IMG/VR virus record: IMGVR_UViG_3300030441_000198
Source of the DNA: a virus
Reading direction: 5' to 3' (one strand)
DNA: 64,000 bases
The notes beneath the pieces were generated by a model. The model did not search any database. It was not told the DNA's origin and saw nothing but the letters and a program-made list of their open reading frames with translations. A program made the position numbers and the translations under genes. This document shows positions 4,578-55,460 of the stretch, piece after piece. Each line of letters starts with the position of its first letter. Within the stretch, counting starts at the first letter, position 1.

Positions 4578-4772
4578 AGAAAGGGGATAGGAGTTATGAA
4601 TAGTGTACTTATTGATCGGAACGTAGCTAAGAAGGTAGAATCCATCTTCGAGCATCCTGATAAGGTCTATTCGGTGTATTTGAAGGCTGGCGGAGATGTC
4701 GTTTGGCTACAAGGTGAAATTGAGTTGTATGAATTTTTGCGCAGCTTATAAAACCAATATTTTTGAAAGGAA

Positions 4773-5399
4773 GTGATTTTTATTAACTCAAATCTGTTAA
4801 TAAATCGTGAGCAAAGTATTGCTGTTGTATGTATAATGTGCTTGCTGGTAGGGAATCTTGTATCGAAGGTCAGCCCTGTGACTCAGAAGCGGAGTAATTC
4901 GTACCTTTATAATAGTAGTCCTTCAGCAGTGAGTATTGTACAACAAGAGGAAAAGGAGCCAGAAATCATTGTAGAGACTGTTATTGAGACGCGGATTGCG
5001 AACTTCAATCAGGGAAAGCGCGAACTCACTGATGATGAGCGTGCTCTTGCGGAGCAGATCGTTGCTTGTGAGGCAGGGGCTGATAGCCTAGAAGGTCAGA
5101 TGGCTGTCGCCCAGTGCTTATATGACTCCGTTGTGATTGATGGAATTACAATTCAGGAAGTTTTTAAGAAGTACGGGTACAGTACCTTATATAATAGGAA
5201 GGTGACGGCAGAGAACGAGCTGGCTGTATCTATGGTGTTTGAATACGGCGCTAAAATTTCAGACAAACCAATCCAATGGTTTGTGACCCCGGCGGCAGCT
5301 CCCGGCAGTTGGCACGAGCGAGGAGCAACGTTTGCTGGACAATTTGGCGCACACAGGTTCTATTATAACGCAAAGTTGGTTGTGGATGATGCTGAGTAA
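4773..5399 (+). CDS. cell wall hydrolase (SleB/Hydrolase_2-like) with N-terminal signal/TM segment
   Basis: C-terminal LAEQIVACEAGADSLEGQMAVAQCLYDSV...WHERGATFAG resembles the SleB-type cell-wall hydrolase domain; start uncertain (GTG 4773 or ATG 4836). Confidence 0.5.
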   Translation: MIFINSNLLINREQSIAVVCIMCLLVGNLVSKVSPVTQKRSNSYLYNSSPSAVSIVQQEEKEPEIIVETVIETRIANFNQGKRELTDDERALAEQIVACEAGADSLEGQMAVAQCLYDSVVIDGITIQEVFKKYGYSTLYNRKVTAENELAVSMVFEYGAKISDKPIQWFVTPAAAPGSWHERGATFAGQFGAHRFYYNAKLVVDDAE

Positions 5400-5453
5400 A
5401 TGGTATCATCTAAAATTTTGATAAAACTGCACAACAAAAAGATGTGAAATATA

Positions 5454-5481
5454 TTGACTAAAACAAAAGGCTGTGTATAAT
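5454..5481 (+). promoter_or_regulatory. sigma70-like promoter (TTGACT ... TATAAT)
   Basis: TTGACT 5454-5459 and TATAAT 5476-5481 with 16-nt spacer, upstream of the 5524 gene. Confidence 0.4.
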
Positions 5482-5523
5482 ATATCTTGAAAGTTGTTTG
5501 CGTAAGTGGAAGGTGGTATTGTG

Positions 5524-5850
5524 ATGAGTGAGAGAAAGGTTTTGAAGATTATACGGGTTGATGATTTTTTAAAGTACATAAGAAAAAAGCGAGTGTGGGT
5601 TTGCTTTGTTTGCAATGGTGTGGATGTCCACATGATCTGTAACAAAATGACCGACATTAGCGCAGAGACGCATGGTATTGTCAAAGGTGTTGGCTTTTTC
5701 GGGAACGAGAGTCATGTTGAGCTGCGGAAAGAATGTCATGAAGTAAGAATGGTGGAGTTTAGGCCTAGTAGCAAAGAGAAAGCTTATGAGATGATCTTCG
5801 GCAATACCAGCGTGCTTGTGTCAGAGAATCCTGAGTTGTACGGTCACTAA
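5524..5850 (+). CDS. hypothetical protein (possible partner or antitoxin of the downstream MazF-like toxin)
   Basis: ATG 5524 with RBS GGAAGGTGG; 108-aa product; sits directly upstream of the mazF-like gene. Confidence 0.35.
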   Translation: MSERKVLKIIRVDDFLKYIRKKRVWVCFVCNGVDVHMICNKMTDISAETHGIVKGVGFFGNESHVELRKECHEVRMVEFRPSSKEKAYEMIFGNTSVLVSENPELYGH

Positions 5851-5868
5851 AATGTTTTCAAAAACCTC

Positions 5869-5897
5869 TTGACTTCTGCAATGGTATCCTGTATAAT
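5869..5897 (+). promoter_or_regulatory. consensus sigma70 promoter carrying the conserved GTATCCTGTATAATATAGCTAT motif
   Basis: TTGACT 5869-5874, 17-nt spacer, TATAAT 5892-5897; motif 5884-5905 recurs seven times in the phage. Confidence 0.55.
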
Positions 5898-5940
5898 ATA
5901 GCTATGGAACGGAGCTACACTATTATAGAGGAGAAAGACT

Positions 5941-6360
5941 ATGGACAACAATATTGACCCAAAGGTCGGAGAGGTTTGGTTGGTTGATCTATCCAACGCG
6001 ACAGGTCATCAGCAGCGCGGTATTCGACCGTTCGTTGTGACGAGCAACAATAAGCGCAACTTCTTTAGCCCCACGATCAAAGGGAATCCATTGTCTTCCA
6101 GAATATACAAGCACTCTCCGGTTCATGTCCTACTTTCAAAGGAAGACTGTGATTTCTTAGAGGTTGACAGTATCGTTCTTTGTGAAGAGACTGACACACT
6201 TAACAAAGGACAGTTCATCAAAAAACTTGGTGTCTTGTCGGAGCGTCAGATGAATATGATCGCAATGGCAAGATGCAAGGATGAACCGTTTTTGCTCGCA
6301 GCATTCCTGAGCGGCGTACAACATACCATGGAATTTCAGAATTTTGCCGCATTTGCTTGA
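5941..6360 (+). CDS. mazF: MazF/PemK/EndoA-family endoribonuclease toxin
   Basis: GEVWLVDLSNATGHQQRGIRPFVV...SPTI aligns with the EndoA/MazF signature ([24 protein letters not shown]...SPT); RBS AGAGGAG. Confidence 0.7.
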   Translation: MDNNIDPKVGEVWLVDLSNATGHQQRGIRPFVVTSNNKRNFFSPTIKGNPLSSRIYKHSPVHVLLSKEDCDFLEVDSIVLCEETDTLNKGQFIKKLGVLSERQMNMIAMARCKDEPFLLAAFLSGVQHTMEFQNFAAFA

Positions 6361-6413
6361 TTTTTCATAATGGTTAATGGTACACTACATATAATAAGAA
6401 GGAGTGTGCCACT

Positions 6414-7340
6414 ATGCTTACTGAAGAAAAGATCAAAGCTTTTGCTGAAAAGTATTCTGATAGAAGCGGTGAGTTTGTTGTATCGACACTTAGCCATGTT
6501 ATGGATTACGAGGCCGAGTGTGGGTATGAGCTATTCGACTTCATAAAGAGTGATTTCGTAAAGATGTTTTCCCAGTATAACTGGGTAAACTCAAGCCGCT
6601 CATTCAAAAATGTGAAGTCGATAATCACAGGCTACATCAAAAGCGAAAACGAAACAAGTATGTATGATCTAGCTGACTTTTCAGAGAGCGATGTAAGCGC
6701 AGACAATATGTATGCGGATAAATACTTCGCATCAGTTGATGAGTTTGTTGACTTCTTAAATAAGTACGAAGAGCCATATCAGATTCGCATGAACGTGATT
6801 GCTGCACTGTACTGGATTGGCCTTACTTCTGAAGAAGTTTCTAACCTGACGATTAACGATGTCGATTTTGAATCTTGTACAGTTCTTGACAAGACCGATG
6901 TTGACGCAAAGTTGATAGATATTATTAAGCAGTGTTATGAAATGAAACAGTATGACGCTCCCAATAAGGGAGGGTATAGAGCATTCTATGTCATGAATGG
7001 TGATTACATCATTCGTAAAACCGATGATAGTATCGGTGCAGACAGTGATCCAAAGATGTCTACGAACACAATTCACACCTATTTTACGCGGTTGAATGAT
7101 ATCCTTGAAAGAAGATATCATTCGAAGATTTTAGACCGAAGACATCTTGTCAGAAATGGTGAGTATGTGAAGGTCTACAACTACTGCCAGAACCACCCAG
7201 AATATAATTTTACGAAACTTGGTTTTGATAGGGGTGGGGATTCTCTTGCCAACATTATTGGTAGAGAATGTTGTAAGACGGCCTATCTTAGTTTCCGACA
7301 GGGATACAAAGGTTGGGTCGAATATTTCCATAAAAATTGA
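6414..7340 (+). CDS. hypothetical protein (weak integrase-like segment, no catalytic motifs)
   Basis: 308-aa ORF with RBS AAGGAG; ALYWIGLTSEEVSNLTINDVDF resembles the start of a tyrosine-recombinase catalytic domain but R..H..R..Y residues are not evident. Confidence 0.4.
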   Translation: MLTEEKIKAFAEKYSDRSGEFVVSTLSHVMDYEAECGYELFDFIKSDFVKMFSQYNWVNSSRSFKNVKSIITGYIKSENETSMYDLADFSESDVSADNMYADKYFASVDEFVDFLNKYEEPYQIRMNVIAALYWIGLTSEEVSNLTINDVDFESCTVLDKTDVDAKLIDIIKQCYEMKQYDAPNKGGYRAFYVMNGDYIIRKTDDSIGADSDPKMSTNTIHTYFTRLNDILERRYHSKILDRRHLVRNGEYVKVYNYCQNHPEYNFTKLGFDRGGDSLANIIGRECCKTAYLSFRQGYKGWVEYFHKN

Positions 7341-7345
7341 AAACA

Positions 7346-7368
7346 GGGGGCTTCTGCCCCTTGATTTT
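7346..7368 (+). terminator. rho-independent terminator
   Basis: GGGGC-TTCT-GCCCC hairpin followed by TTGATTTT. Confidence 0.55.
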
Positions 7369-7376
7369 AACGTGTT

Positions 7377-7396
7377 AGCTATATAACACAGGATAC
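7377..7396 (+). promoter_or_regulatory. conserved motif AGCTATATAACACAGGATAC (promoter/operator) upstream of the Pnkp-like gene
   Basis: One of seven copies of the -10 box plus GTATCCTG/CAGGATAC box motif. Confidence 0.45.
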
Positions 7397-7411
7397 TTAT
7401 TAGAAAGGGAA

Positions 7412-9628
7412 ATGCAGATGAGAACACTTTTACTGTTCCGTGGAGCACCCGGTTGCGGGAAGTCCACCTATATTAAAGAGCATAATCTGGAACAGTACGT
7501 ATTGAGTGCTGATACACTTCGCCTTATGTGCCAGAGCGCGCAGGAAACACCTGCTGGGCAGATGGAGATTTCTCCGCAGAATGATGATGTTGTATGGAAG
7601 ATGCTTTTTAAACTGATTGAGGTGCGCATGAGTCACGGGGAATTTACTGTGATTGACGCAACGAATTCTAAGACGGTCGAAATGAATTGTTATAAGAATC
7701 TTGCAAAACAGTATCGTTATCGTATGTATGTTATTGACATGACGGATATTCCTATCGAGGAATGCAAACGAAGAAACGCTCAGAGAGAATGGCTGAAGCG
7801 AGTCCCTGAAGCGGCCATTGATAAGATGTACGCTCGGTTTGCTACTCAAAAAGTTCCTTCTGGCGTGACAGTTCTTCCTTCTACTACGGATGTGCTGTCT
7901 GATTTGAACTACAGTCCGAATGACTTCAACCAGTGGAAAAAGATCCATATCATCGGTGATATTCATGGCTGCTATACTTGTTTGAGTGAATACCTTGGTG
8001 AGATGAAGGACGACGAACTTTATATCTTCGTTGGTGATTATCTCGATCGTGGCATCGAAAACGTTGAGGTATTCAAGTTCTTGTGTGATATTGTAAATAA
8101 CAACCGCAAGAATGTGATTCTTTTGGAAGGAAATCACGAGCGTTGGCTGAACAAATGGGGGCATGATGAACCGGTTCAGAGTGAAGAGTTTGCAAACTAC
8201 ACTCGTCCGCAACTCTTTAAAGCCGGTATTGACAAGAACACTGCTCGTAAGATCTATTCCAGAGTTGGCCAATGTGCTTACTTTGAGTATGATGGGAAGC
8301 GGTATTTCGTGAGCCACGGTGGTTTGAGTTATCTGCCTTATTTTCTTCCTTTTGTATCTGCTGATCAAATGATTAAAGGCGTAGGTCGCTATCCTGATAT
8401 GCTAACCGTGGCTGAGTCTTGGGAAAAATCGATGCCGGATAGCTACATTCAGATCTTCGGTCATCGAAATGTGCAGGATGTTCCTATTGATATGGGGCAT
8501 CGGTGCTACAACCTCGAAGGAAAAATCGAGTTTGGTGGATATCTCCGTTGCGTGGAACTTGAACACGGTCAGTCAATCAAATGTGTAGAAACAAAGAACG
8601 ATGTGTTCCGAAAAGAGGAGCCAAAGACTGAAACTGCCGTTGAAATGAAAACTGAGTTCGATAACGCAGAACTTGTCAGTAAGATGCGTCAAAGCAAATA
8701 TGTGTTTGAGAAGCGATTCGGAGATATTTCTTCTTTCAACTTCTCTCGTGAAGCATTTTATAAGAAGCACTGGGATGAGGTTTCTACCAAAGCAAGGGGG
8801 TTGTTCATTAACACAAAGACGAATAAGATTGTAGCTCGAAGCTATGATAAGTTCTTTGCGGTCGATGAGCGGAATGAAACGAGAATTGGAAACCTACAGA
8901 ACACTTTGAAGTTCCCGGTGACTGCATATCTGAAGGAAAACGGATTTCTTGGCATTGTCTCATATGATGCAGAACAGGATGGTCTGTTCATTGCAAGTAA
9001 ATCCACTCCTGAAGGGCCTTTTGCAGATATGTTCCGAAAGATTCTCATGGATACGACTTCTGATGAAGACCGTAAGAATCTGAAGGAAGTTGCAAAAGAG
9101 AATGGTTCCATCATTTTTGAGGTGATTGATCCTATAAATGATGCTCATATCATCGAATACAAGAAACCGCACATTGTTTTGCTGGATATTGTTGCGAATG
9201 ATATGAACTTCAGTGTGATGGATTACGATGATCTGAAGCGTGTTGCTGAAAAGTGTCATTTGCAGATTAAGGAGAGGGTTAAGATTTTTGAGAGCTGGAG
9301 TGAATTCTATCCTTGGTATGAGGAAGTCATGAACGAGAACTATCTGCATCATGGCTTTGAACACGTTGAAGGCTTTGTTTTGCGAGACAGCAACAATTTC
9401 ATGTTTAAGATGAAGCTTCCTTATTATAAGCACTGGAAGTTCTTGCGTGGTGTCATGCAGAGCGTTCAGAAACGTGGCTATTATGAAAATACCGCAAAGT
9501 TGTTTACTGCTGAGGATAACCTGTTTTATGGTTGGATGCGTGAACAACGAGAGAAAGGCCAGGAATCTTTCTGCAAAAAGGGTATTATTCAGTTACGGAA
9601 TGAATTCTATGAGAATCGGCACGAATAA
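7412..9628 (+). CDS. Pnkp-like trifunctional RNA repair enzyme (P-loop polynucleotide kinase + metallophosphoesterase + adenylyltransferase/ligase domain)
   Basis: N-terminal Walker A GAPGCGKST; central GDIHG / GDYLDRG / GNHE metallophosphatase motifs; C-terminal KENG candidate lysine-adenylylation motif I. Domain order matches bacterial Pnkp. Confidence 0.65.
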   Translation: MQMRTLLLFRGAPGCGKSTYIKEHNLEQYVLSADTLRLMCQSAQETPAGQMEISPQNDDVVWKMLFKLIEVRMSHGEFTVIDATNSKTVEMNCYKNLAKQYRYRMYVIDMTDIPIEECKRRNAQREWLKRVPEAAIDKMYARFATQKVPSGVTVLPSTTDVLSDLNYSPNDFNQWKKIHIIGDIHGCYTCLSEYLGEMKDDELYIFVGDYLDRGIENVEVFKFLCDIVNNNRKNVILLEGNHERWLNKWGHDEPVQSEEFANYTRPQLFKAGIDKNTARKIYSRVGQCAYFEYDGKRYFVSHGGLSYLPYFLPFVSADQMIKGVGRYPDMLTVAESWEKSMPDSYIQIFGHRNVQDVPIDMGHRCYNLEGKIEFGGYLRCVELEHGQSIKCVETKNDVFRKEEPKTETAVEMKTEFDNAELVSKMRQSKYVFEKRFGDISSFNFSREAFYKKHWDEVSTKARGLFINTKTNKIVARSYDKFFAVDERNETRIGNLQNTLKFPVTAYLKENGFLGIVSYDAEQDGLFIASKSTPEGPFADMFRKILMDTTSDEDRKNLKEVAKENGSIIFEVIDPINDAHIIEYKKPHIVLLDIVANDMNFSVMDYDDLKRVAEKCHLQIKERVKIFESWSEFYPWYEEVMNENYLHHGFEHVEGFVLRDSNNFMFKMKLPYYKHWKFLRGVMQSVQKRGYYENTAKLFTAEDNLFYGWMREQREKGQESFCKKGIIQLRNEFYENRHE

Positions 9629-9694
9629 CTAAGATATTTTCTTCCTCCGAAAATGCCCTGCGCGGGGCTGACAGCCGGGAAAGACCGGCGATAT

Positions 9695-9773
9695 GGCCCT
9701 ATGGCGGAATTAGGCATACGCAACAAGCTCAAACCTTGTAAAATTCTCAGTTCAAATCTGAGTAGGGCTACCA
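9695..9773 (+). tRNA. tRNA, anticodon CAA (UUG-reading) with class-I length, oversized D-loop and encoded CCA; isotype uncertain
   Basis: Acceptor GGCCCTA/TAGGGCT, anticodon stem ACAAG/CTTGT with loop CTCAAAC, T-arm CTCAG-TTCAAAT-CTGAG, 3' ACCA. Confidence 0.5.
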
Positions 9774-9852
9774 ACCCATTTGCAGATGGGTAAGTGCTAG
9801 AATATTGGCAAATCGGAAAGACGGTTGACTGCTGGACAGACAGCTTTGATAT

Positions 9853-9935
9853 GCTACCGTGGTGGAATGGCAGACACCGGAGACTTAAAATCTCCTGTCG
9901 GCAACGACGTGCCCGTTCAAGTCGGGTCGGTAGCA
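9853..9935 (+). tRNA. tRNA-Leu (anticodon TAA), class II with long variable arm
   Basis: Acceptor GCTACCG/CGGTAGC, anticodon stem-loop GGAGA-CTTAAAA-TCTCC, variable arm GTCGGCAACGAC, T-arm GCCCG-TTCAAGT-CGGGT. Confidence 0.65.
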
Positions 9936-9942
9936 CTAATAT

Positions 9943-10018
9943 CCGGGTGTAGCTCAGTTGGAAGAGCGCGTGCTTTGGGAGCATGAGGCCGCAGGATCAT
10001 GACCTGTCACTCGGACCA
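9943..10018 (+). tRNA. tRNA-Pro (anticodon TGG), encoded CCA, atypical T-loop (ATCATGA)
   Basis: Acceptor CCGGGTG/CACTCGG, D-arm GCTC-AGTTGGAA-GAGC, anticodon stem CGTGC/GCATG with loop TTTGGGA. Confidence 0.6.
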
Positions 10019-10048
10019 GCCCGAAAGGGCATGTAGAATTTTTCATTC

Positions 10049-10100
10049 ACATTATTCCCAGCTCTCTGGAAACAGAGCAGTGTGGCATAGCAAGCTGGGT
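10049..10100 (+). ncRNA. conserved structured hairpin element preceding tRNA-Gln (copy 1)
   Basis: ATTATTCCCAGCTC ... AAGCTGGGT outer stem enclosing CTCTG-GAAA-CAGAG (GNRA loop); a second copy with compensatory changes lies at 10316-10368. Confidence 0.4.
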
Positions 10101-10105
10101 AGATT

Positions 10106-10178
10106 ACGAGGATTAGCCAAGCGGATAAGGCAGTGGAATTTGACTCCACGACCGCAGGTTCGATTCCTGCACCCTCGA
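10106..10178 (+). tRNA. tRNA-Gln (anticodon TTG)
   Basis: Anticodon arm GTGGA-ATTTGAC-TCCAC, T-arm GCAGG-TTCGATT-CCTGC, acceptor CGAGGAT/ACCCTCG with one mismatch. Confidence 0.55.
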
Positions 10179-10185
10179 TTTATAT

Positions 10186-10270
10186 GCGGGTATGGTGTAA
10201 CTGGCAGCCACGCGGATTTTAGGTGTCCGTGCCGAAAGGCGTGAGGGATCGTGCCCCTCTACCCGTACCA
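10186..10270 (+). tRNA. tRNA-Leu (anticodon TAG), class II, encoded CCA
   Basis: Acceptor GCGGGTA/TACCCGT, anticodon arm CGGAT-TTTAGGT-GTCCG, variable arm GCC-GAAA-GGC, T-arm GAGGG-ATCGTGC-CCCTC, 3' ACCA. Confidence 0.6.
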
Positions 10271-10315
10271 CGGTCATAGAATGGTTGCGTACCGTTTGTT
10301 GATCTCCTTTGGCCA

Positions 10316-10368
10316 CTATTATTCCCAGCTCGCTCGTAAGAGTGCAGTAGTGCTTTGTAAGCTGGGTG
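10316..10368 (+). ncRNA. conserved structured hairpin element preceding the tRNA-like gene (copy 2)
   Basis: Same outer stem CCCAGCT/AGCTGGG; inner hairpin CTC-GTAA-GAG covaries with copy 1. Confidence 0.4.
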
Positions 10369-10373
10369 ATTGT

Positions 10374-10445
10374 GCAGTTATTGTGTAGTTGGTAAGCACG
10401 CTTGCTGATGAAGTAAGAGGATGAGTTCAAAACTCATTGACTGCA
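10374..10445 (+). tRNA. tRNA-like sequence, non-canonical anticodon loop (TGATGAA, G at position 33); possible pseudo-tRNA
   Basis: Good acceptor (GCAGTTA/TGACTGC), D-arm (GTGT-AGTTGGTAA-GCAC) and T-arm (ATGAG-TTCAAAA-CTCAT); anticodon loop lacks U33 and variable loop is 3 nt. Confidence 0.3.
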
Positions 10446-10648
10446 AAATATGAAATCAGTTGTTCTAGCTCGTTCGTGGATTGGCCGTACATTGGCGACC
10501 GGAAAGACGTCATACCGGTAAAGGACGTCAAGCCAAACAAGAAGAGAAATAAGGTGTAAGCCGACTAGCTATCGGATAAATACTCTTCGATTCGCCAGAA
10601 AACTAGAATGTAAAACGAATGGTTGGCTGTTTCTGATTTCATTTATAT

Positions 10649-10724
10649 GCGACTGTAGTTCAATTGGCAGAGCGTCAGATTTCCAATCTGAATGTTGCGG
10701 GATCGTGCCCCGTCAGTCGCTCCA
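10649..10724 (+). tRNA. tRNA-Gly (anticodon TCC), encoded CCA
   Basis: Acceptor GCGACTG/CAGTCGC, D-arm GTTC-AATTGGCA-GAGC, anticodon arm TCAGA-TTTCCAA-TCTGA, T-arm GCGGG-ATCGTGC-CCCGT, 3' TCCA. Confidence 0.65.
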
Positions 10725-10855
10725 CACGCAGCCACTTACGCTGCACCGGTTGCTCAGAGCCGAAAGAAACCTATATGTTACGACATGGTTGCCAAGAGTG
10801 ATCATATTGGAACGCGACGTAGCTTGGATAGTGAGAATTAAATTCTGAGGTATAC

Positions 10856-10924
10856 TGCTGGATAGCTTAATGGTAAAAGCGCTCGGAAACGCCGAGAGAT
10901 AAGGTTCGATTCCTTCACTGGCAT
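10856..10924 (+). tRNA. tRNA-like element with canonical D- and T-arms but a 5-nt anticodon loop; probable degenerate or regulatory tRNA-like RNA
   Basis: TAGCTTAATGGTAAAAGC D-arm and AAGG-TTCGATT-CCTT T-arm; central CTCGG-AAACG-CCGAG hairpin instead of a 7-nt anticodon loop; imperfect acceptor. Confidence 0.25.
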
Positions 10925-10951
10925 CACGTCGATGAAAGTCGGCGTTTGCAT

Positions 10952-11028
10952 GGGATAGTAGCTCAGTTGGTCAGAGCTGGCGGCTCATAACCGCTTGGTC
11001 GCGAGTTCAAATCTTGCCTGTCCCACCA
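10952..11028 (+). tRNA. tRNA-Met (anticodon CAT; Met/fMet/Ile2 not distinguished), encoded CCA
   Basis: Acceptor GGGATAG/CTGTCCC, D-arm GCTC-AGTTGGTCA-GAGC, anticodon arm GGCGG-CTCATAA-CCGCT, T-arm GCGAG-TTCAAAT-CTTGC, 3' ACCA. Confidence 0.65.
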
Positions 11029-11132
11029 GCCCGATAGGGCATACATAAAATCTGCTAGAACTTTTGTTTTATAAGCGAATGAATAATATGACGTTAATAC
11101 GTCTATTATTTTTCGCTAATTTTTAAAGTTTT

Positions 11133-11152
11133 AGCTATATAATACAGGATAC
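11133..11152 (+). promoter_or_regulatory. conserved motif AGCTATATAATACAGGATAC upstream of the methyltransferase locus
   Basis: Copy of the recurring motif; contains a TATAAT -10 element. Confidence 0.45.
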
Positions 11153-11167
11153 GAAAAGGAGGAATGA

Positions 11168-12640
11168 AAACTGAAGCATTACGGAGATATCACACAACTT
11201 CATGGATGGCAGATTGAACCGGTTTCCTGTATCACAGGAGGCAGTCCATGCCAAGATTTGAGTCAGGCCGGTAAACGTGAAGGTTTGGCTGGTGAACGCT
11301 CTGGATTGTTCCTTGAAATGATTCGTGTGATTACAGAAATGAGGGAGGCCACCAATGGGGAATATCCAAAATTCGCAATCTGGGAAAATGTCAGAGGAGC
11401 TTTTAGCTCAAGCAAAGGTGAAGACTTCAGATGTGTGTTGGAAAGATTTGCACGCATTGTCGAGCCAGACGTTTCAATTCCTCGACCTTCAGGAAAGAAC
11501 GGAAAGTGGGCAAAATCTGGAGCGATTTCCGGTAATGGATGGTCTCTTGCATGGAGATTGTTCGACGCTAAATACTGGGGAGTCGCCCAGCGCCGCCAGA
11601 GAATCGCGCTTGTCATGGATTTTGGAGGACAACGTGCCTCAGAAATTCTATTTGAGCGCACGAGCATGTCAGGGGATTCTTGTGAGAGCATCCCGGCGTG
11701 GAAAACCTTTGCCCGAACTCCTGAAGCAAGCGTTGCTGGATATGATCGAATGGTGGAATCCAGGAACTCTGTCACAGGTGGTGCAGAAAGTGAAGGAACA
11801 AGAAGGTCTGGAAGAGAAGGAATTGGACGAGTATTGGAGTCAAACCATCGAGAGACTTCGACTCGATGCACAGAACCTGCAGCCTACACTCTAAAAATCC
11901 GTTCTGGATGTGAAGGTGGCGGTAAAGGCGCTCTGGTTCAAACTGAATTGAGCGCAACGATTTCTACGTTGCAAGACCAGACGCTAATTTGCTTGGTAGA
12001 AAATCCCTCCTTACATAATTTAAAACAAAAGATTTCGCCGGTGGTATTTGAGAGTCACAGTCAGGACGCTCGATACACTCAGCAGGGTGATACAAGTCCG
12101 ACTTGTACTGCTCAGTGGGGAACGGGCGGTAATAATATGCCGCTGGTTGTTGAAAAGAAAGCCTTTGCGATGCAACGCATTGGTGAATACAAGGAAAGTG
12201 AACACGCCAGCACGATGAAATCTCGTGATTATAAGGACGCTACTGATCTGATTGCAGAGAAGGAAACGAAGAATCTACGATGGATTGTTCGCCGCTTGAC
12301 TCCTTTGGAGGATGAACGGTTACAGGGTTTTCATGACGGATGGACTGATATCGGTGATTGGATCGATGAGAATGGGAAGAAGCACAAGACTTCTGACGCA
12401 GCTCGTTACAAAGCACTCGGTAATTCAATCGCTTTGCCTCAGTGGTATTGGATTTTTCAGAAAATGAAGCCGTATATCGGTGAAAATCCTACGCTTGGCA
12501 GTCTTTTCGATGGAATTGGTGGCTTTCCGCTTGTCTTTGAAAGTACGTATGGTGATGGTACTGCTATCTGGGGGTCTGAAATTGATAGCTTTTGCGTTGC
12601 AGTAACCAAGAAGCGTTTTCCAGAAAAGCAAAGAGGATAA
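11168..12640 (+). CDS. DNA (cytosine-5)-methyltransferase, circularly permuted motif order (IV-X then I-II) with an internal segment in another frame; possible pseudogene
   Basis: Motif IV GGSPCQ at 11240-11254, ENV (FAIWENV), QRRQR, C-terminal-type RLTPLEDERLQGF and GNSIALP, then motif I LFDGIGGF and motif II SEID at 12500-12600 before the stop. The target-recognition segment (QKFYLSARACQGILVRASRRGKPLPELLKQAL) sits in the +1 frame at about 11616-11893. Confidence 0.55.
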   Translation, partial: KLKHYGDITQLHGWQIEPVSCITGGSPCQDLSQAGKREGLAGERSGLFLEMIRVITEMREATNGEYPKFAIWENVRGAFSSSKGEDFRCVLERFARIVEPDVSIPRPSGKNGKWAKSGAISGNGWSLAWRLFDAKYWGVAQRRQRIALVMDFGGQRASEILFERTSMSGDSCESIPAWKTFARTPEASVAGYDRMVESRNSVTGGAESEGTRRSGREGIGRVLESNHRETSTRCTEPAAYTLKIRSGCEGGGKGALVQTELSATISTLQDQTLICLVENPSLHNLKQKISPVVFESHSQDARYTQQGDTSPTCTAQWGTGGNNMPLVVEKKAFAMQRIGEYKESEHASTMKSRDYKDATDLIAEKETKNLRWIVRRLTPLEDERLQGFHDGWTDIGDWIDENGKKHKTSDAARYKALGNSIALPQWYWIFQKMKPYIGENPTLGSLFDGIGGFPLVFESTYGDGTAIWGSEIDSFCVAVTKKRFPEKQRG

Positions 12641-15333: not shown

Positions 15334-15350
15334 AATTTTTTAGTCTTAGA

Positions 15351-15367
15351 TGTGTAATACAGGATAC
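15351..15367 (+). promoter_or_regulatory. partial copy of the conserved motif (TGTGTAATACAGGATAC)
   Basis: Shares the TAATACAGGATAC core with the other copies. Confidence 0.35.
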
Positions 15368-23099: not shown

Positions 23100-25291
23100 A
23101 TGAGTAGCAGTTTACATACGCACTCATACTTTTAGTTTACTCGATGGATTCTCTTCTCCTGAAGAAAATCTAAAAAGAGCATCAGAACTTGGTTTGAAAG
23201 CCATTGCCATTACGGAACATGGTGAGGTAACAAGCTGGCCGTACTATTCTGAACTAAAAGGCAAGTATCCGAATGTCAAACTTCTTTATGGTATCGAGGC
23301 ATACGAGTGCGAAGATAGGGAAGTCAAGGACAAGAATAGTAAATATTGGCATTTAATCATTATTGCCAAGAACGAAGCTGGTCGTCAGGCAGTCAATCGC
23401 TTATCTACACTCGGTCATCTTCATGGCTTTTACAGCCGTCCTCGTATCACAAAAGAGGATATCGCTAAGGAAGATACGAATAATTTGATTATCCTGTCTG
23501 CTTGTTTGGCGAGTAGGTTGTCCAAAACGGATGATTATGACACTTGTGTTAAGCTGGTTCAAGAGTATAAGAGCTTATTCCCTCACTATTATCTTGAGGT
23601 TCAGGCTCACGCAAACAGTGAACAAGCAAAATATAATCAGAAAATCATGCGGTTGGCAAACGATACTCATACAAAAGTAGTCGTCACAAACGATGTTCAT
23701 GCTGCTACCAAAGAGGATCTTTATTATCAAGATTACTTCCTTCGAATCGCACATGATACGGAAACTGCCGCAGAAATCTATGAGGGATGTTATTTTATGT
23801 CTCGTAAAGAGCAACATGAAGTCCTTGATAGTCAGATTGGATATGATGCAGCAGAATGGTGTATTAACAATACTGACGAGGTTGCTGATCTGTGTGATGA
23901 TGTGGATATGCCTTGGCATGAACCGGAACTTCCAAAAATTGAGATTCCGCCACAGTATTCTAATTCGGCAGCTTATCTGAAAGACCTTGTAAAAGAGGGA
24001 TGGAAGAAACGTAGCATTGATAAGTTTGATGTAGAAAAGCAGAAAATCTATCGAAAACGTGTTGATGATGAGCTGTTTGTCATTGAGAAGAAAGACTTCT
24101 GTGACTACTTTTTGATTCTGGTTGATTACATCAACTGGTGTAAGAAAAATGATGTCATTGTTGGCCCTGGTCGTGGTTCTGCTGCTGGTTCTCTTGTATG
24201 TTACCTGATTGGCATTACGCAGCTTGATTCCATCAAGTATGAACTTGACTTCGGACGATTCCTTACCATTGAGCGAAAAGACCTTCCTGACGTTGATGTT
24301 GATGTCAGTGACCGTGCCAAGGTTGTCGAGTATCTGACACAGAAGTATGGAGAAGATCGAGTAGTTCAGGTTATGAACATCGTGTACACTACTCCGGTCA
24401 CTTCGATTCAGGACGTTGGTAAAGTTCTCGGTTTTCCGTATGCCGAAATAAGAAAAATCAGCGAGAAGTTTGTTCAAAAGACATGGAAGGATTGCCTTGA
24501 AGCCAACCCGGAAGTGGTTGAAAATCCGAAGTATAAGGAACTACTTGACATCGCAAGTCATATCAATGGTCGCCCACGAGGATATGGTATTCATGCTGGC
24601 GGTGTTATTGTCTGCCGACATCCTTACTATGAATATATCGGTATCCGGCATGGTACTGACGGAGAGCATGTTATCTCTGTTGATAAAGTGATGGACGAGA
24701 AGATTGGACTCGTCAAGTTTGATATTCTTGGTGTTGCGTCGCTGGTTGCTATCGACGAGGCAAAACGTGAAGACAATATTCCAGACTGGGAGATTGATAT
24801 TAACAATCCAGAGTTTGAAAACGATAAGGCAACTTACGATTTGATTTGTTCCGGGCGGACAGACAATCTATTCCAGATTGAGTCTTCAGGCATGAAGGAT
24901 CTGGTTGCACAGCTTCAGCCGAGGTCGATTGAAGAACTATCCGCTTTGATTGCACTTTATCGTCCTGATGCAATGCCGTCCATTCCTACATACGTTGATT
25001 GCAAGTACCACCCTGAACACATTCACTACTTCCATCCTGACATGGAACCAATTTTTCGCAGCACATATGGTGTGAATATCTATCAGGAACAGAGTATGAA
25101 GCTCACGAAGGTCTTTGGCGGTCGAAACGATGCCGGAGCTGATAGAATGCGTAAATGCTTGGCAAAGAAAAAGCCTGAGAAAGTCAAGGAAGAAGTTACT
25201 ATCCTCCGAAAAGAAATACTGGATAACGGGTACGACTCTCGTACCGCAGAGTATATTTGTGACGAATTGTCCACCAAGGGTGGATATGGAT
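23100..25291 (+). CDS. dnaE: DNA polymerase III alpha subunit (DnaE/PolC-type), exon 1; apparent frameshift in T-run 23130-23133
   Basis: MSSSLHTHSYF then stop; the +1 frame continues SLLDGFSS...AIAITEHG (PHP-domain signature HxHSxxSLLDG). Ends at GGYG(F) just before the intron. Confidence 0.6.
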
Positions 25292-25518
25292 TGACGAAAG
25301 TTAAGTCCCTTATGTTGGCGACAACATAAGCAAACGCCGAATATGCGGGAAACTCCTTAGAGCCTTATGTACCAAAGTGTAATAATCATAAGGATTGGAC
25401 AATCCGCAGAGACAGCGCAGAAATGCGAAGCTCTCAACGACTACCAAGGCGTATTTCGTAAGAAATAATGGTATAGTCTACTCCCTATACAAATAATGCG
25501 AAAGCATGGGTATGAAGA
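25292..25518 (+). ncRNA. ORF-less group I self-splicing intron interrupting dnaE (about 227 nt; boundaries +/- 2 nt)
   Basis: The conserved GYGFNKSHS motif is split (GGYG | ... | NKSHS). P1 pairs exon GGAT with intron GTCC (25305-25308, u-G at the splice site); P10 pairs intron GTTAA (25300-25304) with exon-2 TTAAC (25519-25523); P7-like GACTA ... ATAGTC; several GNRA hairpins. Confidence 0.55.
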
Positions 25519-26543
25519 TTAACAAGTCACATTCTCAGGCGTATGCCGTTATCTGCCTTCAAACCGCATACTTAAAAACACACCATCCGCTTGCATTCTT
25601 TAAGGCTATGTTGAACCTAAATAAAGCAAAGGTTGGCAAGGTCAACAAGATTATGGTGGATGCACGCAGCTTTGATATTCAGATTCTTCCGCCGAGTATC
25701 AATCGTTCCGGCATGGATTTTACTGTGTCAAATGGTAAAATCCTATTTGGCTTGTCTGCTATCGGTGGTATTGGCAATACACTTGCTGAAACTATCATTG
25801 CAGAACGAGATAAAAATGGAAAATTCAAAGGGCTTGAAGATTTCACGAGTCGTGTTCGTGCAACGAAAGCGCAGATTATTGCATTGGTTAAATCCGGTGC
25901 GATTCCTACAAAGAACAAACGAATATTCTTGGAAAAGTACATTGCCAGCGGTTTGGAACAATCTGAGTTTAAGCCAGTCAGTACACTTCCTACCAAGGCA
26001 GTTTTGCTGAGTAAGTGGGATATTGATACAGAGCATTATAAGGTTTGTAAGAAGGTTGACAAAGAAACCGTCCTGCGGATCTATAATGAAAAGCGCCGTG
26101 TCGTACATGAAACCGAGAAGCTGAAAAAGAAAGAAGCGTATATGGCCGAGCAGACCACGAAATATCTACAAGATGAAGAGCTTTGGGAGTTCCAGACTTT
26201 GCAGACCTTTATCAGTGACCCGAATCCTTTCGAGAAGGCATTTGCTTATATCAAGGATTTCTCTGAAATCGAAGAAGGTGATTCTTGTGTACTGGTTGGT
26301 ATTATCGCAAAGATTCAGAAGAAGAAAACGAAGACTGGTATGCAGTTTGCATTTGTAAATCTGTATTCTGGCGATGGTATCATTGAGCTGACCGTATGGC
26401 CGAGAGTCTTGTCAGATTATCAGGATTTGATTGTAAAGGGAAGTCAGGTAGCTGTGCTTGGAAAGAAGGAAGATGAATCGCACGTTATTGCAAGCAACTT
26501 CAAACCTTATAAGCAGTGGTTGCATGATAGAGAGATAGCGTAA
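25519..26543 (+). CDS. dnaE: DNA polymerase III alpha subunit, exon 2
   Basis: Resumes (F)NKSHSQAYAVICLQTAYLKTHHP (conserved pol III alpha motif) in frame with exon 1 once the intron is removed. Confidence 0.6.
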
Positions 26544-26801: not shown

Positions 26802-29132
26802 GTGGCAGATAAAAAATTTAATGAAAATATGATTCGTTGCTACATCAGGATAAAACGAGTCTTTTATCCGAAAGATGGGAGGGAGGTGGAGCCCGGAGGC
26901 TTCGCCACTTTCTCTGCCGAGGTGGTAAAAGTCAAGCAGGGAAATCCTATCATGAGCCGATACAGCGACCTCCGGCTAAAAGGCAACGTTCCTAGCCTCG
27001 ATATGAATAAAACTTATTCGTTCTGTGGTGAATATGTTCATCATGAAAAGTTTGGTGATCAGTATAAAATTATCTACATGAATGAGTTTCAAGAGATTAC
27101 TGACCCGGAAGAACAAAAAAGCTTTCTCCGTTTTATCTTGACTGACCATCAGTTTGAGATGCTTTACGAAGCATTCAACAATCCGTATGAAATTATCAAG
27201 AATGGGGACATCAAGTCTCTTTGTACTGTTAGCGGTATTACGGAAGGTCGAGCACAAAAGATCATTGACTCTTTTGAAAACAACATTGATAACAGTGAAG
27301 CGTACACGAAACTGATTGAATACGGTTTGACTCCCAGTGCTATTGAAAAGCTTGTTCGTCAGTATCACGGTGCAGACATTCTAGTAAAAAAGATTGAAGA
27401 GAATCCTTACGTCTTGATTGATGATGTGTATGGTATCGGCTGGAAAAAAGCTGACGCTATTGCTTTGAATATGGGCTTAAAGCACAATTCGCAATTCAGA
27501 ATCGAAGCTTACGTCATGCATTTTCTTGCCACTCGTGCCGAAGAAGGTAACTCTATTATCTCGGCAAACCAGACAATCAATAGCTGTATTAAGGAACTTG
27601 ATTTGAACGAGGGTGATCAAGAAGTCATCAAAAGGGCACTTTTCCATCTGCATGATGTCCGTGAAACGCTTTGGTGGAGTGATGACCGTCAGGAATTTGC
27701 TTTAACTAGAGTGTGGAATCTGGAAGATAACATTGCAAAAGAAATCAAGCGTCTGGCGGATGCTCCTGTTGAGCCGATTGGTCGAAATATGGATGCAGCA
27801 ATCAATGAGGCCGAGGATGAACTTTGTATCGAGTACACTGAAGAGCAGAGAGATGCTATTAAAAAGGTATGCTCTAGCAACGTCTGTATCTTAACAGGCT
27901 ACGGCGGAACTGGCAAAAGTACCGTTGTCGCTGGTGTTTTAAAGGTTCTTCGTGGTAAGTCTTTTGCTCAGACTGCACTTTCTGGTCGTGCCGCAGCTCG
28001 TATGCAGGAGATTACTGGTCAGGATGGAAAGACGATTCATCGTCTCCTTGGATATGACATCGAGAACGGTGGGTTTGTTCACGATAAGGGTAATCCTCTG
28101 GATGAGGACATCATCATTCTGGATGAGACCTCTATGGTTGGAGCTCAACTATTCTATGACTTGATTCAGGCTATCGAGACCGGAAAGCGATTCATCATGA
28201 TTGGTGATGACGGGCAGCTTGAGAGCATCGGTATGTGTAACATTTTCAAGGACATGCTTGCATCTAAGGTTGTTCCTGTGGCTCGTTTGACTAAGATCCA
28301 TCGTCAGGCAGCTAAGTCTGCAATTATCACGGAGAGCATCAAGGTTCGTAATGCTACGCAGTTGGTGCCTTATGGCTGGGCTGGTAGTGAGATTCGTGGT
28401 GAACTTCGTGATTTGGAGCTTGATATCTATAAGGACGCAAGTGAGTCATTCAACCACATCATCAATCAGTACCGTACCTTATATAATAAGGTGGGGAATG
28501 ATAGTGCGAAGATTCAGATTGTGCTTCCACAGAAGCTGCGTGGTAGTATCTGTACTTATGAAGTCAATAATGCTATTCAGGAAATTGTGAATCCGAGTCG
28601 TGGTCAAACAGAAGCAAAGGTCACAATCTATGGTGATGGCAAGGATAGAGTGTACACTCTGCGTGAGGGTGATCAGGTCATCATCAACAAAAACAACTAT
28701 GAGCTTCATACATACAATCTCAAGACAAAGAAAAAAGAAGAGAAGTGTCCGGTGTTCAACGGAAACCGTGGCATTATCCGAAAGATTGAGAGTAGTTTTA
28801 TCCTGGTTGATTTTGACCAGTGGGGAACGATTTTCATTCCTCATTACTTTGGTGGGAATAACATTTGGGCAACGCTTGAACTTGCTTATGCTTTAAGTTG
28901 TCATAAGTTGCAGGGCAGTGAGGCTCCGTATGTGATTGTTGGCATGGACAACTCTGCGTACCTGATGCTGACGAGAGAATGGCTCTATACGGCCATTACT
29001 CGTGCCAAGAAGTATTGTGTGATTTGTGCCGAAACTCATGCTCTTGATCGGGCTGTAAAGACTTCGAGAGTTCCATATAAGCGGACGTTCTTGAAGGAAT
29101 TTTTACGGAAAGAATTTGCAGAAAAGCATTGA
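26802..29132 (+). CDS. RecD-like SF1 ATP-dependent DNA helicase
   Basis: Walker A GYGGTGKST, IILDETSMV, GDDGQLESIG, HKLQGSEAPYVIV helicase motifs. Confidence 0.6.
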   Translation: MADKKFNENMIRCYIRIKRVFYPKDGREVEPGGFATFSAEVVKVKQGNPIMSRYSDLRLKGNVPSLDMNKTYSFCGEYVHHEKFGDQYKIIYMNEFQEITDPEEQKSFLRFILTDHQFEMLYEAFNNPYEIIKNGDIKSLCTVSGITEGRAQKIIDSFENNIDNSEAYTKLIEYGLTPSAIEKLVRQYHGADILVKKIEENPYVLIDDVYGIGWKKADAIALNMGLKHNSQFRIEAYVMHFLATRAEEGNSIISANQTINSCIKELDLNEGDQEVIKRALFHLHDVRETLWWSDDRQEFALTRVWNLEDNIAKEIKRLADAPVEPIGRNMDAAINEAEDELCIEYTEEQRDAIKKVCSSNVCILTGYGGTGKSTVVAGVLKVLRGKSFAQTALSGRAAARMQEITGQDGKTIHRLLGYDIENGGFVHDKGNPLDEDIIILDETSMVGAQLFYDLIQAIETGKRFIMIGDDGQLESIGMCNIFKDMLASKVVPVARLTKIHRQAAKSAIITESIKVRNATQLVPYGWAGSEIRGELRDLELDIYKDASESFNHIINQYRTLYNKVGNDSAKIQIVLPQKLRGSICTYEVNNAIQEIVNPSRGQTEAKVTIYGDGKDRVYTLREGDQVIINKNNYELHTYNLKTKKKEEKCPVFNGNRGIIRKIESSFILVDFDQWGTIFIPHYFGGNNIWATLELAYALSCHKLQGSEAPYVIVGMDNSAYLMLTREWLYTAITRAKKYCVICAETHALDRAVKTSRVPYKRTFLKEFLRKEFAEKH

Positions 29133-29157
29133 CAATTATGTTCGTATCCTGTATAAT
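29129..29157 (+). promoter_or_regulatory. consensus sigma70 promoter (TTGACA-17-TATAAT) with conserved motif
   Basis: TTGACA 29129-29134, TATAAT 29152-29157; motif GTATCCTGTATAATATAGCTAT at 29144-29165. Confidence 0.55.
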
Positions 29158-29203
29158 ATAGCTATAAAAAGTCTCCATCCCGGAGGCTTAAAATTCTCTC
29201 TTT

Positions 29204-29223
29204 AGCTATATAATGCAGGATAC
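29204..29223 (+). promoter_or_regulatory. conserved motif AGCTATATAATGCAGGATAC (inverted relative to the 29144 copy)
   Basis: Forms an inverted pair with 29144-29165, 38 bp apart. Confidence 0.45.
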
Positions 29224-29235
29224 GGGAAAGAAATG

Positions 29236-29266
29236 GCTTGCTCGTAACGACAAGCCTTTCTTTATT
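29236..29266 (+). terminator. candidate hairpin/terminator (GGCTTGCTCG-TAA-CGACAAGCC + TTTCTTTATT)
   Basis: About 9-bp stem with one bulge followed by a T-rich tract. Confidence 0.3.
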
Positions 29267-29272
29267 AACTAT

Positions 29273-29292
29273 AACTATATAACACAGGATAC
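29273..29292 (+). promoter_or_regulatory. conserved motif AACTATATAACACAGGATAC upstream of the ligase gene
   Basis: Seventh copy of the motif; RBS GCAAGGAGG follows. Confidence 0.45.
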
Positions 29293-29305
29293 GCAAGGAG
29301 GCTTT

Positions 29306-54292: not shown

Positions 54293-54376
54293 GCCGCTGT
54301 GGTGAAATTGGCAGACACGAGGGACTTAAAATCCCTTTCTGGAGACAGAGTACGGGTTCGACCCCCGTCGGCGGCA
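54293..54376 (+). tRNA. tRNA-Leu (anticodon TAA), host-type (GC-rich), class II
   Basis: Acceptor GCCGCTG/CGGCGGC, anticodon arm AGGGA-CTTAAAA-TCCCT, variable arm, T-arm ACGGG-TTCGACC-CCCGT. Confidence 0.65.
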
Positions 54377-54498
54377 TGGAGACGCCCAGAATCGTTCGTT
54401 GATTCGAATGATTCTGGGCTTTTTCTTTTTGCGCCATTTTCTGGAAGTGCTGAGCGGGCGAGAGGGATTTTTCGCGAAAAAAGGAGGAGTCTCTCTCG

Positions 54499-55460
54499 TG
54501 CGTAATCGTGATTTAAGACCCGCTGCCAAGGCAAACCCCACCATCCAACAGGCCTTTGAAAGGTTCCAAAAGTACAACCGGCTCAAGAACCTCTCCCAAG
54601 GCTCACTCGACTTCTACGCCGCAAAGGGCAGAAGCTTCTTTCGGTTTCTGGGGGATACGGAGCAGCCCATCCATACCATCACAGAGGAAACGGTGGAGGA
54701 CTATATCTTCTATATGAAGGACCAGCAGCTCCACGATACGACCATCAATACGAACCTCCGCATGGTGCGTGCGTTTTTGTACTGGTGCATGGAAAAGGGC
54801 TATCTGGAAAAGTATCCTATCAGACTGGTGCGTGCAGATGATCCGATCAAGGAACCCTACACCACCGACGAATTGCAGAAGCTATTGAAGGAACCGGACT
54901 GCAAGACCTGCTCCTTTGCCGAATACCGCAATTGGGTCATTGTCAACTTCCTGCTTGGTACCGGCTGCCGTGCGTCCACGCTGCTCAACCTGCAGATCGG
55001 AGATTTGGACCTTTCCGCCGGGACAGTGTTTTTCCGCCACATGAAGGCGCGTAATCAGCAAATCGTGCCGCTCTCTAAGGCACTGGTCAAGATCATGGAG
55101 GAGTATCTGGAGCATCGTACCAGCGACCCTACAGCCCCGTTGTTTGTCTCGGAGTATGGCAACCAGATGACCCTGAATTCGCTCGGAAATGCGATTTGGA
55201 ATTATAATCATAGCAGAGGTGTGGATAAGACCTCTATGCACCTGTTCCGGCACACCTATGCGAAGCTGTATATCCAAGCTGGCGGCGACCCGTTCCGTCT
55301 GCAAAAGCTGCTGGGACACGCAGACCTCACCATGACCCGGCGGTATGTGGCACTGTATGCGGACGACCTGAGAGCCAACTATGACGCCCTGAACCCTCTA
55401 GAGCAGCTGACCCGCCAAAATCGCCACGGAGATAAGATCAAGATGGTAAAGGGAAACTGA
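54499..55460 (+). CDS. int: tyrosine-type site-specific integrase (second integrative element, tRNA-adjacent)
   Basis: GTG start after AAAGGAGGAG; catalytic region HLFRHTYAKLYIQAGGDPFRLQKLLGHADLTMTRRYVALY; directly follows tRNA-Leu. Confidence 0.65.

Follow-up and report, generated by a model that had tools for sequence, protein, structure and literature searches.

In the large temperate Bacillus phages phi3T and SPbeta, lysogeny is linked to MazF, an endoribonuclease supplied by the host. Host MazF is required for efficient phi3T lysogeny, and lysogeny drops when MazF or its catalytic Thr48 is lost (PMC10769878). The transcripts of phi3T and SPbeta are enriched in MazF sites (10.1101/2023.04.27.537455) and the sro operon is spared by the nuclease (10.1101/2025.11.27.690993). 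MrpR binds the SPBRE element at about ten promoters, that of its own operon included (PMC10516654), and SroF, acting as a monomer, recognises an asymmetric box of 24-26 bp (10.1101/2025.11.27.690993). The cleavage site U^ACAUA is the strict 6-mer of the MazF proteins of B. subtilis, Listeria and S. aureus and appears to be conserved in Bacillota (10.64898/2026.08.06.743204). Here we describe a mazF gene (5941..6360, + strand) in a 64,000-nucleotide stretch of viral DNA (IMG/VR record IMGVR_UViG_3300030441_000198; hereafter the window), which is part of an integrated temperate SPbeta-like prophage of ~135 kb in Faecalibacterium prausnitzii. Directly downstream of mazF lies a gene for an MrpR/SroF-like protein, and the best reading, on which we consider the case evenly balanced, is that a phage-borne MazF has been built into an SPbeta-type lysis-lysogeny circuit as part of a two-gene lysogeny-control unit.

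The unit would comprise, in order, the promoter PmazF with an overlapping operator-like element, mazF, a structured spacer with a single UACAUA, the MrpR/SroF-type gene and a terminator. Like the sro operon (yopMNOPQR) of SPbeta and phi3T, it lies in a large temperate phage whose replication module is of the SPbeta type, and its last gene encodes an integrase-fold repressor; in both, a long asymmetric element, here a presumed binding site, recurs at early promoters as well as at the promoter of the operon itself. In both cases the phage transcripts are rich in MazF sites and the repressor unit is spared, and the tie between MazF activity and the lysogeny decision known from Bacillus would, by analogy, hold here as well. 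The Bacillus phages depend on a host nuclease and encode its modulators, the MazE-binding SroA/SroB and the MazF-binding AimX/YosL; this phage encodes the nuclease. Where the first gene of sro gives a product that releases MazF from MazE, the first gene of the unit here encodes the nuclease itself. The unit holds two genes in place of the six of sro and the host is a Clostridia gut anaerobe. The MazF-SPbeta connection itself is already published and phage-borne MazF homologues are already catalogued (PHROG 1936); what is new is a phage-encoded nuclease within a repressor unit with no recognisable antitoxin, a family-specific tail on that nuclease, a conserved cut-site motif before the repressor gene and a Clostridia host.

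The mazF gene encodes a protein of 139 amino acids that consists of a core (residues 8-110) and a C-terminal extension, and its ribosome-binding site (GAGGAG) lies 7 nucleotides 5' of the ATG. An earlier note on this DNA, made from the letters alone, had assigned the reading frame to the MazF/PemK family, which is borne out by matches to Pfam PemK_toxin (PF02452; E=2.9e-19, 69.7 bits against a cutoff of 23.1, residues 8-109 on profile positions 1-103 of 109) and to PHROG 1936, 'MazF-like growth inhibitor' (E=3e-22). At the sequence level the protein also matches the solved MazF of S. aureus, B. subtilis, B. anthracis and M. tuberculosis (E=1e-13 to 3e-5), with the S. aureus and B. subtilis structures at E ~1e-13 to 1e-10. 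An AlphaFold (AF2) model derived from 17 family members (predicted local distance difference test, pLDDT, 86.9) can be superimposed onto S. aureus and B. subtilis MazF with template modelling (TM) scores of 0.79-0.88 and a Foldseek E of ~1e-11, and displays the SH3-like beta-barrel of MazF/Kid. The motifs that had been quoted in support of the family, GEVWLVDLS, GHQQRGIRPFVV and SPTI, are all present. Loss of the catalytic residues in a profile alignment had been named as an outcome that would speak against the assignment, and these residues are kept: the catalytic arginine R29, equivalent to R25 in B. subtilis and R29 in E. coli, is invariant in the family, and Ser52 occupies the position of B. 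subtilis T48 and E. coli T52, which is either Ser or Thr across the family. Identity to characterised MazFs is 30-36%, and the NCBIfam equivalog model gives 21 bits, far under its cutoff of 120. Relative to the window, mazF shows nonsynonymous divergence (dN) of 0.003-0.015, synonymous divergence (dS) of 0.11-0.51 and dN/dS of 0.02-0.04; the MazF fold that the gene encodes is intact, and purifying selection on it is very strong. The C-terminal extension is conserved, about 30 amino acids long (consensus AR..DEPFL..AFL.GVQ.T..F..F..YA) and predicted to form two extra helices that have no counterpart in solved MazF structures. The protein resembles MazF/EndoA of B. subtilis and MazF of S. aureus in fold, catalytic Arg, hydroxyl residue (Ser/Thr at the Thr48 position) and presumed cleavage site, U^ACAUA, which is found conserved in cis and is over-represented in the phage. 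It differs from them in being encoded by a phage, in the two-helix extension and in the lack of a MazE-type gene upstream. Members of PHROG 1936 in Psychrobacillus phage Perkons (ORF37) and Enterocloster phage PMBT24 are likewise solitary phage-borne MazFs, 35-40% identical, but an MrpR-like gene is not adjacent to mazF in either phage (the Pfam scan covered three Perkons neighbours). Perkons ORF41 was considered as an MrpR-like neighbour and rejected, being CoiA-like.

The second gene of the unit (6414..7340, + strand) encodes a 308-amino-acid protein which is a candidate master repressor with a DNA-binding, probably non-catalytic integrase fold. A profile of nine family members has MrpR (8a0a, YopR/SroF) as its best PDB match (E=4.2e-5 over ~230 residues), and all nine match the Pfam family MrpR_N_CB (PF22822), at best with 4e-8; the member from the L140 clade reaches 8.8e-14 and 52 bits, which exceeds the cutoff. 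The nine-sequence alignment has no invariant Arg, His or Lys, no member matches PF00589, and Y298 is invariant near the C-terminus. MrpR is described as having an integrase fold without catalysis (PMC10516654), with which the absence of invariant Arg, His and Lys agrees. The clades compared were the window, L001, L005, L129, L130, L131 and L132, whose MazFs are 100-59% identical, together with L140 (36%). An MrpR-like gene, for a protein of 308-344 amino acids, is found downstream of mazF in every one of them; the two genes are adjacent, the second starting 35-80 nucleotides after mazF, in all clades from 100% down to 59% MazF identity, and one gene is inserted between them in L140. In every clade a hairpin terminator stands behind the MrpR-like gene and no terminator between the two genes; that of the window is an intrinsic terminator at 7345..7371 (+ strand). 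The constancy of this downstream neighbour and the placement of the terminators mark mazF plus the repressor homologue as the conserved unit; the conserved neighbour of MazF is the repressor homologue and not the reading frame upstream, ORF108. The suggestion that mazF belongs to a lytic-phase gene block is not supported, as mazF is the first gene of a unit with an MrpR/SroF-type homologue as the second, in an integrated temperate prophage.

Relative to the window, the repressor homologue shows dS of 0.7-1.4 and dN/dS of ~0.09. Divergence is far greater in ORF108 and in the repressor homologue than in mazF, and no two of the three genes covary. The nuclease is almost fixed and the alleles on either side of it are deeply diverged and recombining, as would be expected of a conserved effector surrounded by immunity-type genes. 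Two relatives carry insertions within the unit. In L136 (3425-3880) about 430 nucleotides flanked by the direct repeat GACTTTAGTCGTGAG lie between mazF and the conserved spacer; to judge by inspection alone, a short reading frame within them may be a TnpB-like fragment, and the spacer with its TACATA is still joined to the repressor gene. In L140 (2998-5661) a 417-amino-acid DndB-like (DGQHR) protein is encoded between mazF and a clear MrpR_N_CB protein; the L140 MazF is 36% identical to that of the window (P0031) and keeps the C-terminal extension, and the spacer after its mazF has no TACATA.

The spacer between mazF and mrpR contains an intergenic RNA element (6378..6411, + strand) in which a 5' arm, UGGUACACU (6378-6386), is predicted to pair with AGUGUGCCA (6403-6411), with UACAUA (6386-6391) and the mrpR Shine-Dalgarno sequence (6397-6404) in the loop. 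This element is a predicted MazF processing site 5' of the repressor cistron. TACATA is the only 6-mer common to the spacers of six clades, and any shared 6-mer arises in 5e-5 of shuffles; the Shine-Dalgarno regions of the same spacers have AAGG alone in common. The motif lies 26-41 nucleotides before the start codon and is the sole TACATA in the unit from mazF to the repressor gene in every clade compared, UACAUA being absent from the mazF and mrpR reading frames. Within the close clade (~80 loci) the 36 nucleotides from TTAATGG to the ATG are near-invariant despite an mrpR dS of ~1. Each of the six clades has a predicted spacer hairpin (z -1.1 to -3.7), formed by pairing of a pyrimidine-rich stretch immediately 5' of UACAUA with the ribosome-binding region or with sequence next to it. 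Covariation between the window and L131 that was seen by eye (GGUACACU/AGUGUGCC versus GGUAUUCU/AGAAUGCC) is anecdotal, as RNAalifold found no consensus.

Beyond the spacer, the sense strand of the phage is selectively enriched in UACAUA, in a manner that is strand-specific and extends to the synonymous level. Against a third-order Markov model, TACATA ranks second of all 4096 6-mers in over-representation on the sense strand of the prophage (25 versus 11.0 expected, z 4.2), while its reverse complement is at expectation (18 versus 18.9), as are single-base variants. In 64 kb pooled from six other clades it ranks first of 4096 (35 versus 14.7, z 5.3). Occurrences inside reading frames number 18 versus 7.8 (z 4.3) in the window and 23 versus 12.9 (z 3.5) in the pool, and when synonymous codons were shuffled within each gene the observed number was reached in none of 300 permutations in either set, the reverse complement being not significant. 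Eight of the 25 sites are intergenic, compared with ~9% of the sequence, and those at 14214, 15397, 33995 and 36681 adjoin a Shine-Dalgarno sequence or fall in the interval from that sequence to the start codon. Depletion was not significant for UACAUA in window positions 1-11 kb or in the RNA-repair gene pnkp/rnl, and that of the 5-mer UACAU in the mazF reading frame, seen at five of six loci compared, is statistically not meaningful. In Perkons (L009, 136.8 kb) TACATA around the solitary mazF is found 14 times versus 5.3 expected and its reverse complement 14 times versus 5.6, an excess of ~2.6-fold on both strands which, unlike that of the Faecalibacterium phages, is not strand-specific.

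Transcription of the unit would start from PmazF (TTGACT-17-TATAAT, 5869..5897, + strand), one of two promoters that had been called consensus in the earlier note; the other, P108 (TTGACT-16-TATAAT, 5454..5481, + strand), lies before ORF108. The description is apt, since both match the sigma-A consensus TTGACA-17-TATAAT at 11 of 12 positions. They are the only TTGACT-N16-18-TATAAT sites in the 64 kb, where 0.07 are expected and none of 100 shuffles reached two, and a sigma-A-like promoter is found 5' of mazF in all clades examined. The spacer and -10 hexamer of PmazF lie inside the first copy (GTATCCTGTATAATATAGCTA, 5884..5904, + strand) of a 21-bp repeated element. An inverted copy (7376..7396, - strand), reading TATAAC on the + strand, is directly 5' of the RNA-repair gene, and further good copies are found at 11132-11152(-), 15347-15367(-), 29144-29164(+), 29203-29223(-) and 29272-29292(-). 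The seven prophage copies have at most three mismatches in the 16-nucleotide core and, with one poor match in the host part, make eight matches where 0.65 are expected and none of 100 shuffles reached eight. Copies stand directly 5' of mazF, the RNA-repair gene, a cytosine methylase gene and AAA_24, with three in a row before the DNA ligase gene; they occur in both orientations, each with a TATAAT-like hexamer on the + strand, and P108 lacks a good copy in a comparison of the flanks. The element, repeated at early promoters, is operator-like, and by analogy with MrpR the repressor probably binds it, autoregulating mazF-mrpR along with the early operons. In the L001 clade, where the repressor homologue is 31% identical to that of the window, a different repeated sequence (core ATCTACTAACAAA) takes up corresponding positions, before pnkp/rnl, before yorF and, inverted, inside PmazF, with modest statistical support. 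In the window the three copies before the ligase gene lie within 150 bp (29129-29310); the + copy has a consensus -35 hexamer, the other two are in the - orientation, and two terminator-like hairpins between the copies could give short transcripts or serve as attenuators.

Taken as a lysogeny-control unit, the locus may work as follows. The phage MazF would cut U^ACAUA like the MazF of Bacillus, Listeria and Staphylococcus, and by trimming the early and replication mRNAs of the phage itself it could bias infection towards lysogeny or stabilise it, a role performed by host MazF for phi3T and SPbeta for which the phage would here supply the nuclease. More speculatively, a cut at the spacer UACAUA would part the upstream arm of the hairpin from the mrpR ribosome-binding site, turning on translation of the repressor and cutting off the mazF cistron, which would result in a self-limiting pulse. 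Low autoregulated expression, ORF108 and the C-terminal extension are candidate restraints on MazF in lysogens.

Several points weigh against this picture. The relationship to MrpR is remote, and the 308-amino-acid protein of the window alone falls under the Pfam cutoff (E=0.012). The cleavage specificity is that presumed, from sequence, for a MazF just 30-36% identical to characterised ones, and free MazF made together with the repressor in lysogens would need a restraint. The enrichment in UACAUA could equally reflect use of the host MazF. In the spacer, the hairpin of the window has a z of just -1.06, the hairpins are out of register between clades and RNAalifold on the spacer gave no consensus; the motif moreover overlaps a -10-like TATAAT in several clades and could act at the DNA level. 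The 21-bp element, finally, could be a promoter class and not an operator.

The reading frame upstream of mazF, ORF108 (5524..5850, + strand), encodes a conserved all-beta protein of 108 amino acids, with one UACAUA at 5575. It is a real gene, with 61 homologues at 74-88% identity and, relative to the window, dS of 0.7-1.4 and dN/dS of ~0.13. The earlier note had placed it where an antitoxin would sit while seeing no MazE/AbrB signature in it, and the latter observation stands: ORF108 has no family in Pfam, PHROG, NCBIfam or PADLOC, and tblastn against phages gave no match and thus no detectable SPbeta/phi3T relative such as YosL or SroA/SroB. In a classical type II toxin-antitoxin pair ORF108 would be a novel MazF-binding antitoxin, and the pair would serve in prophage addiction or in the abortion of superinfecting phages. 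Its position is what such a pair calls for, directly 5' of mazF in the same orientation with no terminator before mazF; it is present at 78 of 80 close loci (the best 80 of 326 IMG/VR contigs, MazF at least 97% identical) and at all four loci found via ORF108 itself, and every clade has a reading frame of 101-127 amino acids in this place. Phage-borne mazF genes are also often annotated as growth inhibitors, and the second-best structural match of the ORF108 model in BFVD is an unnamed 125-amino-acid gut-phage protein (TM 0.62). However, the structure prediction proposed as a check points to a PH-like/YojF-like beta domain with no antitoxin fold or DNA-binding domain, and in place of translational coupling there are separate promoters and a gap of 90 bp. 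The upstream reading frames, 108 amino acids in the window and 101, 127, 122, 118 and 125 in other clades, are not detectably homologous (homology among them was rejected by BLASTP, E=4.5, by MAFFT and by hhalign, probability 0.6%); in sister clades whose MazF is 59-70% identical, the place of ORF108 is taken by genes of no detectable homology to it. ORF108 alleles range down to 77% identity where the corresponding MazFs are 97-100% identical, and the two show no joint pattern. In L034, a contig that may be chimeric, mazF and its promoter are intact and ORF108 is cut to its last 15 codons. PADLOC finds no defence-system match for MazF or ORF108, and a toxin-antitoxin pair leaves the enrichment of UACAUA in the phage's own genes unexplained. 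The antitoxin role is therefore not upheld; we regard a classical pair as unlikely and a part in lysis-lysogeny as more likely, and ORF108 as a candidate clade-specific modulator of MazF that is not a recognisable antitoxin. Hidden small reading frames that might be alternative antitoxins were looked for and not found, and for a type III ToxIN-like or type I antitoxin there are no tandem repeats near mazF and no Rfam families in 5-7.5 kb. The upstream reading frames of three of five clades hold one UACAUA each (window 5575, L129 6583, L130 6741); if their products modulate MazF this would amount to mutual inhibition, although with so few cases it may be chance.

The repressor homologue might itself be the missing antitoxin, neutralising MazF, possibly via the C-terminal extension, such that losing or inactivating the repressor would free the nuclease. 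The order of toxin and DNA-binding protein is invariant in all clades, the extension carries an invariant DEPFL..F motif with no counterpart in solved MazF structures, and there is no other conserved partner. Against such a pairing, repressor alleles range down to 22-31% identity (78% within the close clade) beside a nearly fixed extension, and L140 and L136 tolerate insertions between the two genes. We know of no precedent for an integrase-fold antitoxin, and we consider this pairing very improbable.

Directly behind the unit and the inverted 21-bp copy lies a gene (7412..9628, + strand) for a 738-amino-acid RNA heal-and-seal enzyme, in which a polynucleotide kinase, a metallophosphatase and an Rnl1-type RNA ligase are fused (Pfam AAA_33, Metallophos and RNA_lig_T4_1; PHROG 8238 at E=4e-227; TIGR04075 matches the N-terminal 320 residues alone). 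It joins kinase, phosphoesterase and Rnl1-type ligase domains, as known from T4 Pnk and Rnl1 and from bacterial Pnkp, and differs from these in being a single polypeptide with a ligase domain of the Rnl1 rather than the Pnkp type. An array of eight to nine phage tRNA genes follows directly (9695..11028, + strand); ARAGORN reports an odd tRNA-His(ATG) at 10373-10446 that Rfam does not, and Rfam adds a weak tRNA at 10856-10924. The RNA ends made by MazF are a 5'-OH and a 2',3'-cyclic phosphate, and it is on such ends that repair enzymes of this kind act. A functional coupling of the repair protein to MazF is a conjecture. The repair gene and tRNA array follow mazF-mrpR in the window clade and in L001; tblastn leaves about 20 of the 80 close loci without a Pnkp/Rnl match, and the gene was not called in L129 or L130.

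These neighbours bear on the proposal, also made in the earlier note, that MazF is a host shut-off ribonuclease: produced early from a strong promoter it would destroy host mRNA while the repair enzyme and the tRNA array would protect, or mend, what the phage needs. The consensus sigma-A promoter of mazF, the 21-bp element common to the promoters of mazF and of early replication genes, the repair enzyme and tRNA array just downstream and the fit of the MazF product ends to that enzyme are all in keeping with it. Yet the presumed cut site is enriched, not depleted, on the phage's own sense strand, an indication of self-regulation and not of host shut-off; linkage to the repressor gene is universal while linkage to the repair enzyme is not, and the phage is temperate. 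Host shut-off is accordingly rated as improbable. A bolder variant of the self-regulatory idea makes the spacer a MazF-operated RNA switch, in which the cut at UACAUA would unmask the repressor ribosome-binding site and the Rnl1-type ligase would reseal it, giving a reversible cut-and-repair toggle. The cut fragments would stay joined by the 9-bp stem, like a nicked anticodon loop, and the kinase-phosphatase-Rnl1 ligase behind an operator-marked promoter could perform the resealing; MazF would then permit the synthesis of the repressor directly, and with the same cut would separate off its own cistron. We hold this to be a long shot. If such a toggle were true, the lysis-lysogeny decision would be taken by cut and repair in an abundant phage of a keystone gut bacterium.

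The lysogeny-control unit as a whole matters for the reason that the link between MazF and SPbeta has so far looked peculiar to Bacillus. Here a prophage family of ~135 kb, present on hundreds of human-gut contigs and integrated in F. prausnitzii, has the same repressor type and the same enrichment in MazF sites in its messages, with the gene for the nuclease joined to that for the repressor. Were the proposed role correct, MazF-based RNA control would be an ancestral and portable part of the switch of this phage lineage and not a hijacked host defence, it would provide a natural case of a 'toxin' that acts as a regulator without a classical antitoxin, and it would open a way to influence prophage induction in a medically relevant bacterium. 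MazF homologues have been drawn, without comment, in maps of F. prausnitzii phages (PMC12323421).

That mazF is phage-borne, as had been stated before, is confirmed by its place in an integrated prophage. From position 1 to ~50,300 the window has a GC content of ~41%, strong GC skew and genes apparently nearly all on the + strand. A Tn916-type tyrosine integrase (48966-50123) marks the prophage-host junction, beyond which the GC content is 51-58% and the IMPDH leader RNA RF02994 (50468-50575), host IMP dehydrogenase, nicotinate phosphoribosyltransferase (NAPRTase) and a tRNA-Leu (54293-54376) follow. The NAPRTase is identical in sequence to F. prausnitzii proteins, and the exact MazF sequence of the window occurs on 147 contigs, one of 3.06 Mb. 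The integrated state and the host F. prausnitzii follow from the integrase with host genes behind it, the jump in GC content, the NAPRTase identity and the presence of MazF on the 3.06-Mb contig. On the host side the tRNA-Leu is followed by a second tyrosine integrase (54399-55460) and a ResIII/DEAD helicase (55505-57349), which suggests a second integrated element at the tRNA gene. Relatives were found on 326 IMG/VR contigs, many of the best 80 coming from contigs of 125-139 kb. A nucleotide search of INPHARED phages with window positions 4700-9700 gave no match, and the closest relative in GTDB representative genomes is at most 42% identical, so host range or chromosomal origin cannot be traced that way.

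The SPbeta-like character of the phage is apparent from the YorF and YorH Pfam families in relatives, and a scan of the larger reading frames of the window found replication genes for a split Pol III alpha, RecJ, a primase-like protein, RecD2 helicase, ligase and NrdD. The N part of Pol III alpha (23194-25329) has the PHP, NTPase and finger domains and the C part (25506-26543), which begins 176 bp after the first reading frame, has the HHH and OB domains. Upstream of ORF108 lies ORF208 (4773-5399; PHROG 18750, function unknown), which has a faint likeness to SleB-type cell-wall hydrolases (Pfam Hydrolase_2, E=0.089) and is very variable among close phages (70-99% identity). The C-5 cytosine methylase reading frame (11258-12640) matches its Pfam model in two separate stretches, and in relatives (L005-L008) this position is occupied by methylase fragments and GIY-YIG, HNH and TnpB-like genes, giving it the appearance of an insertion hotspot.

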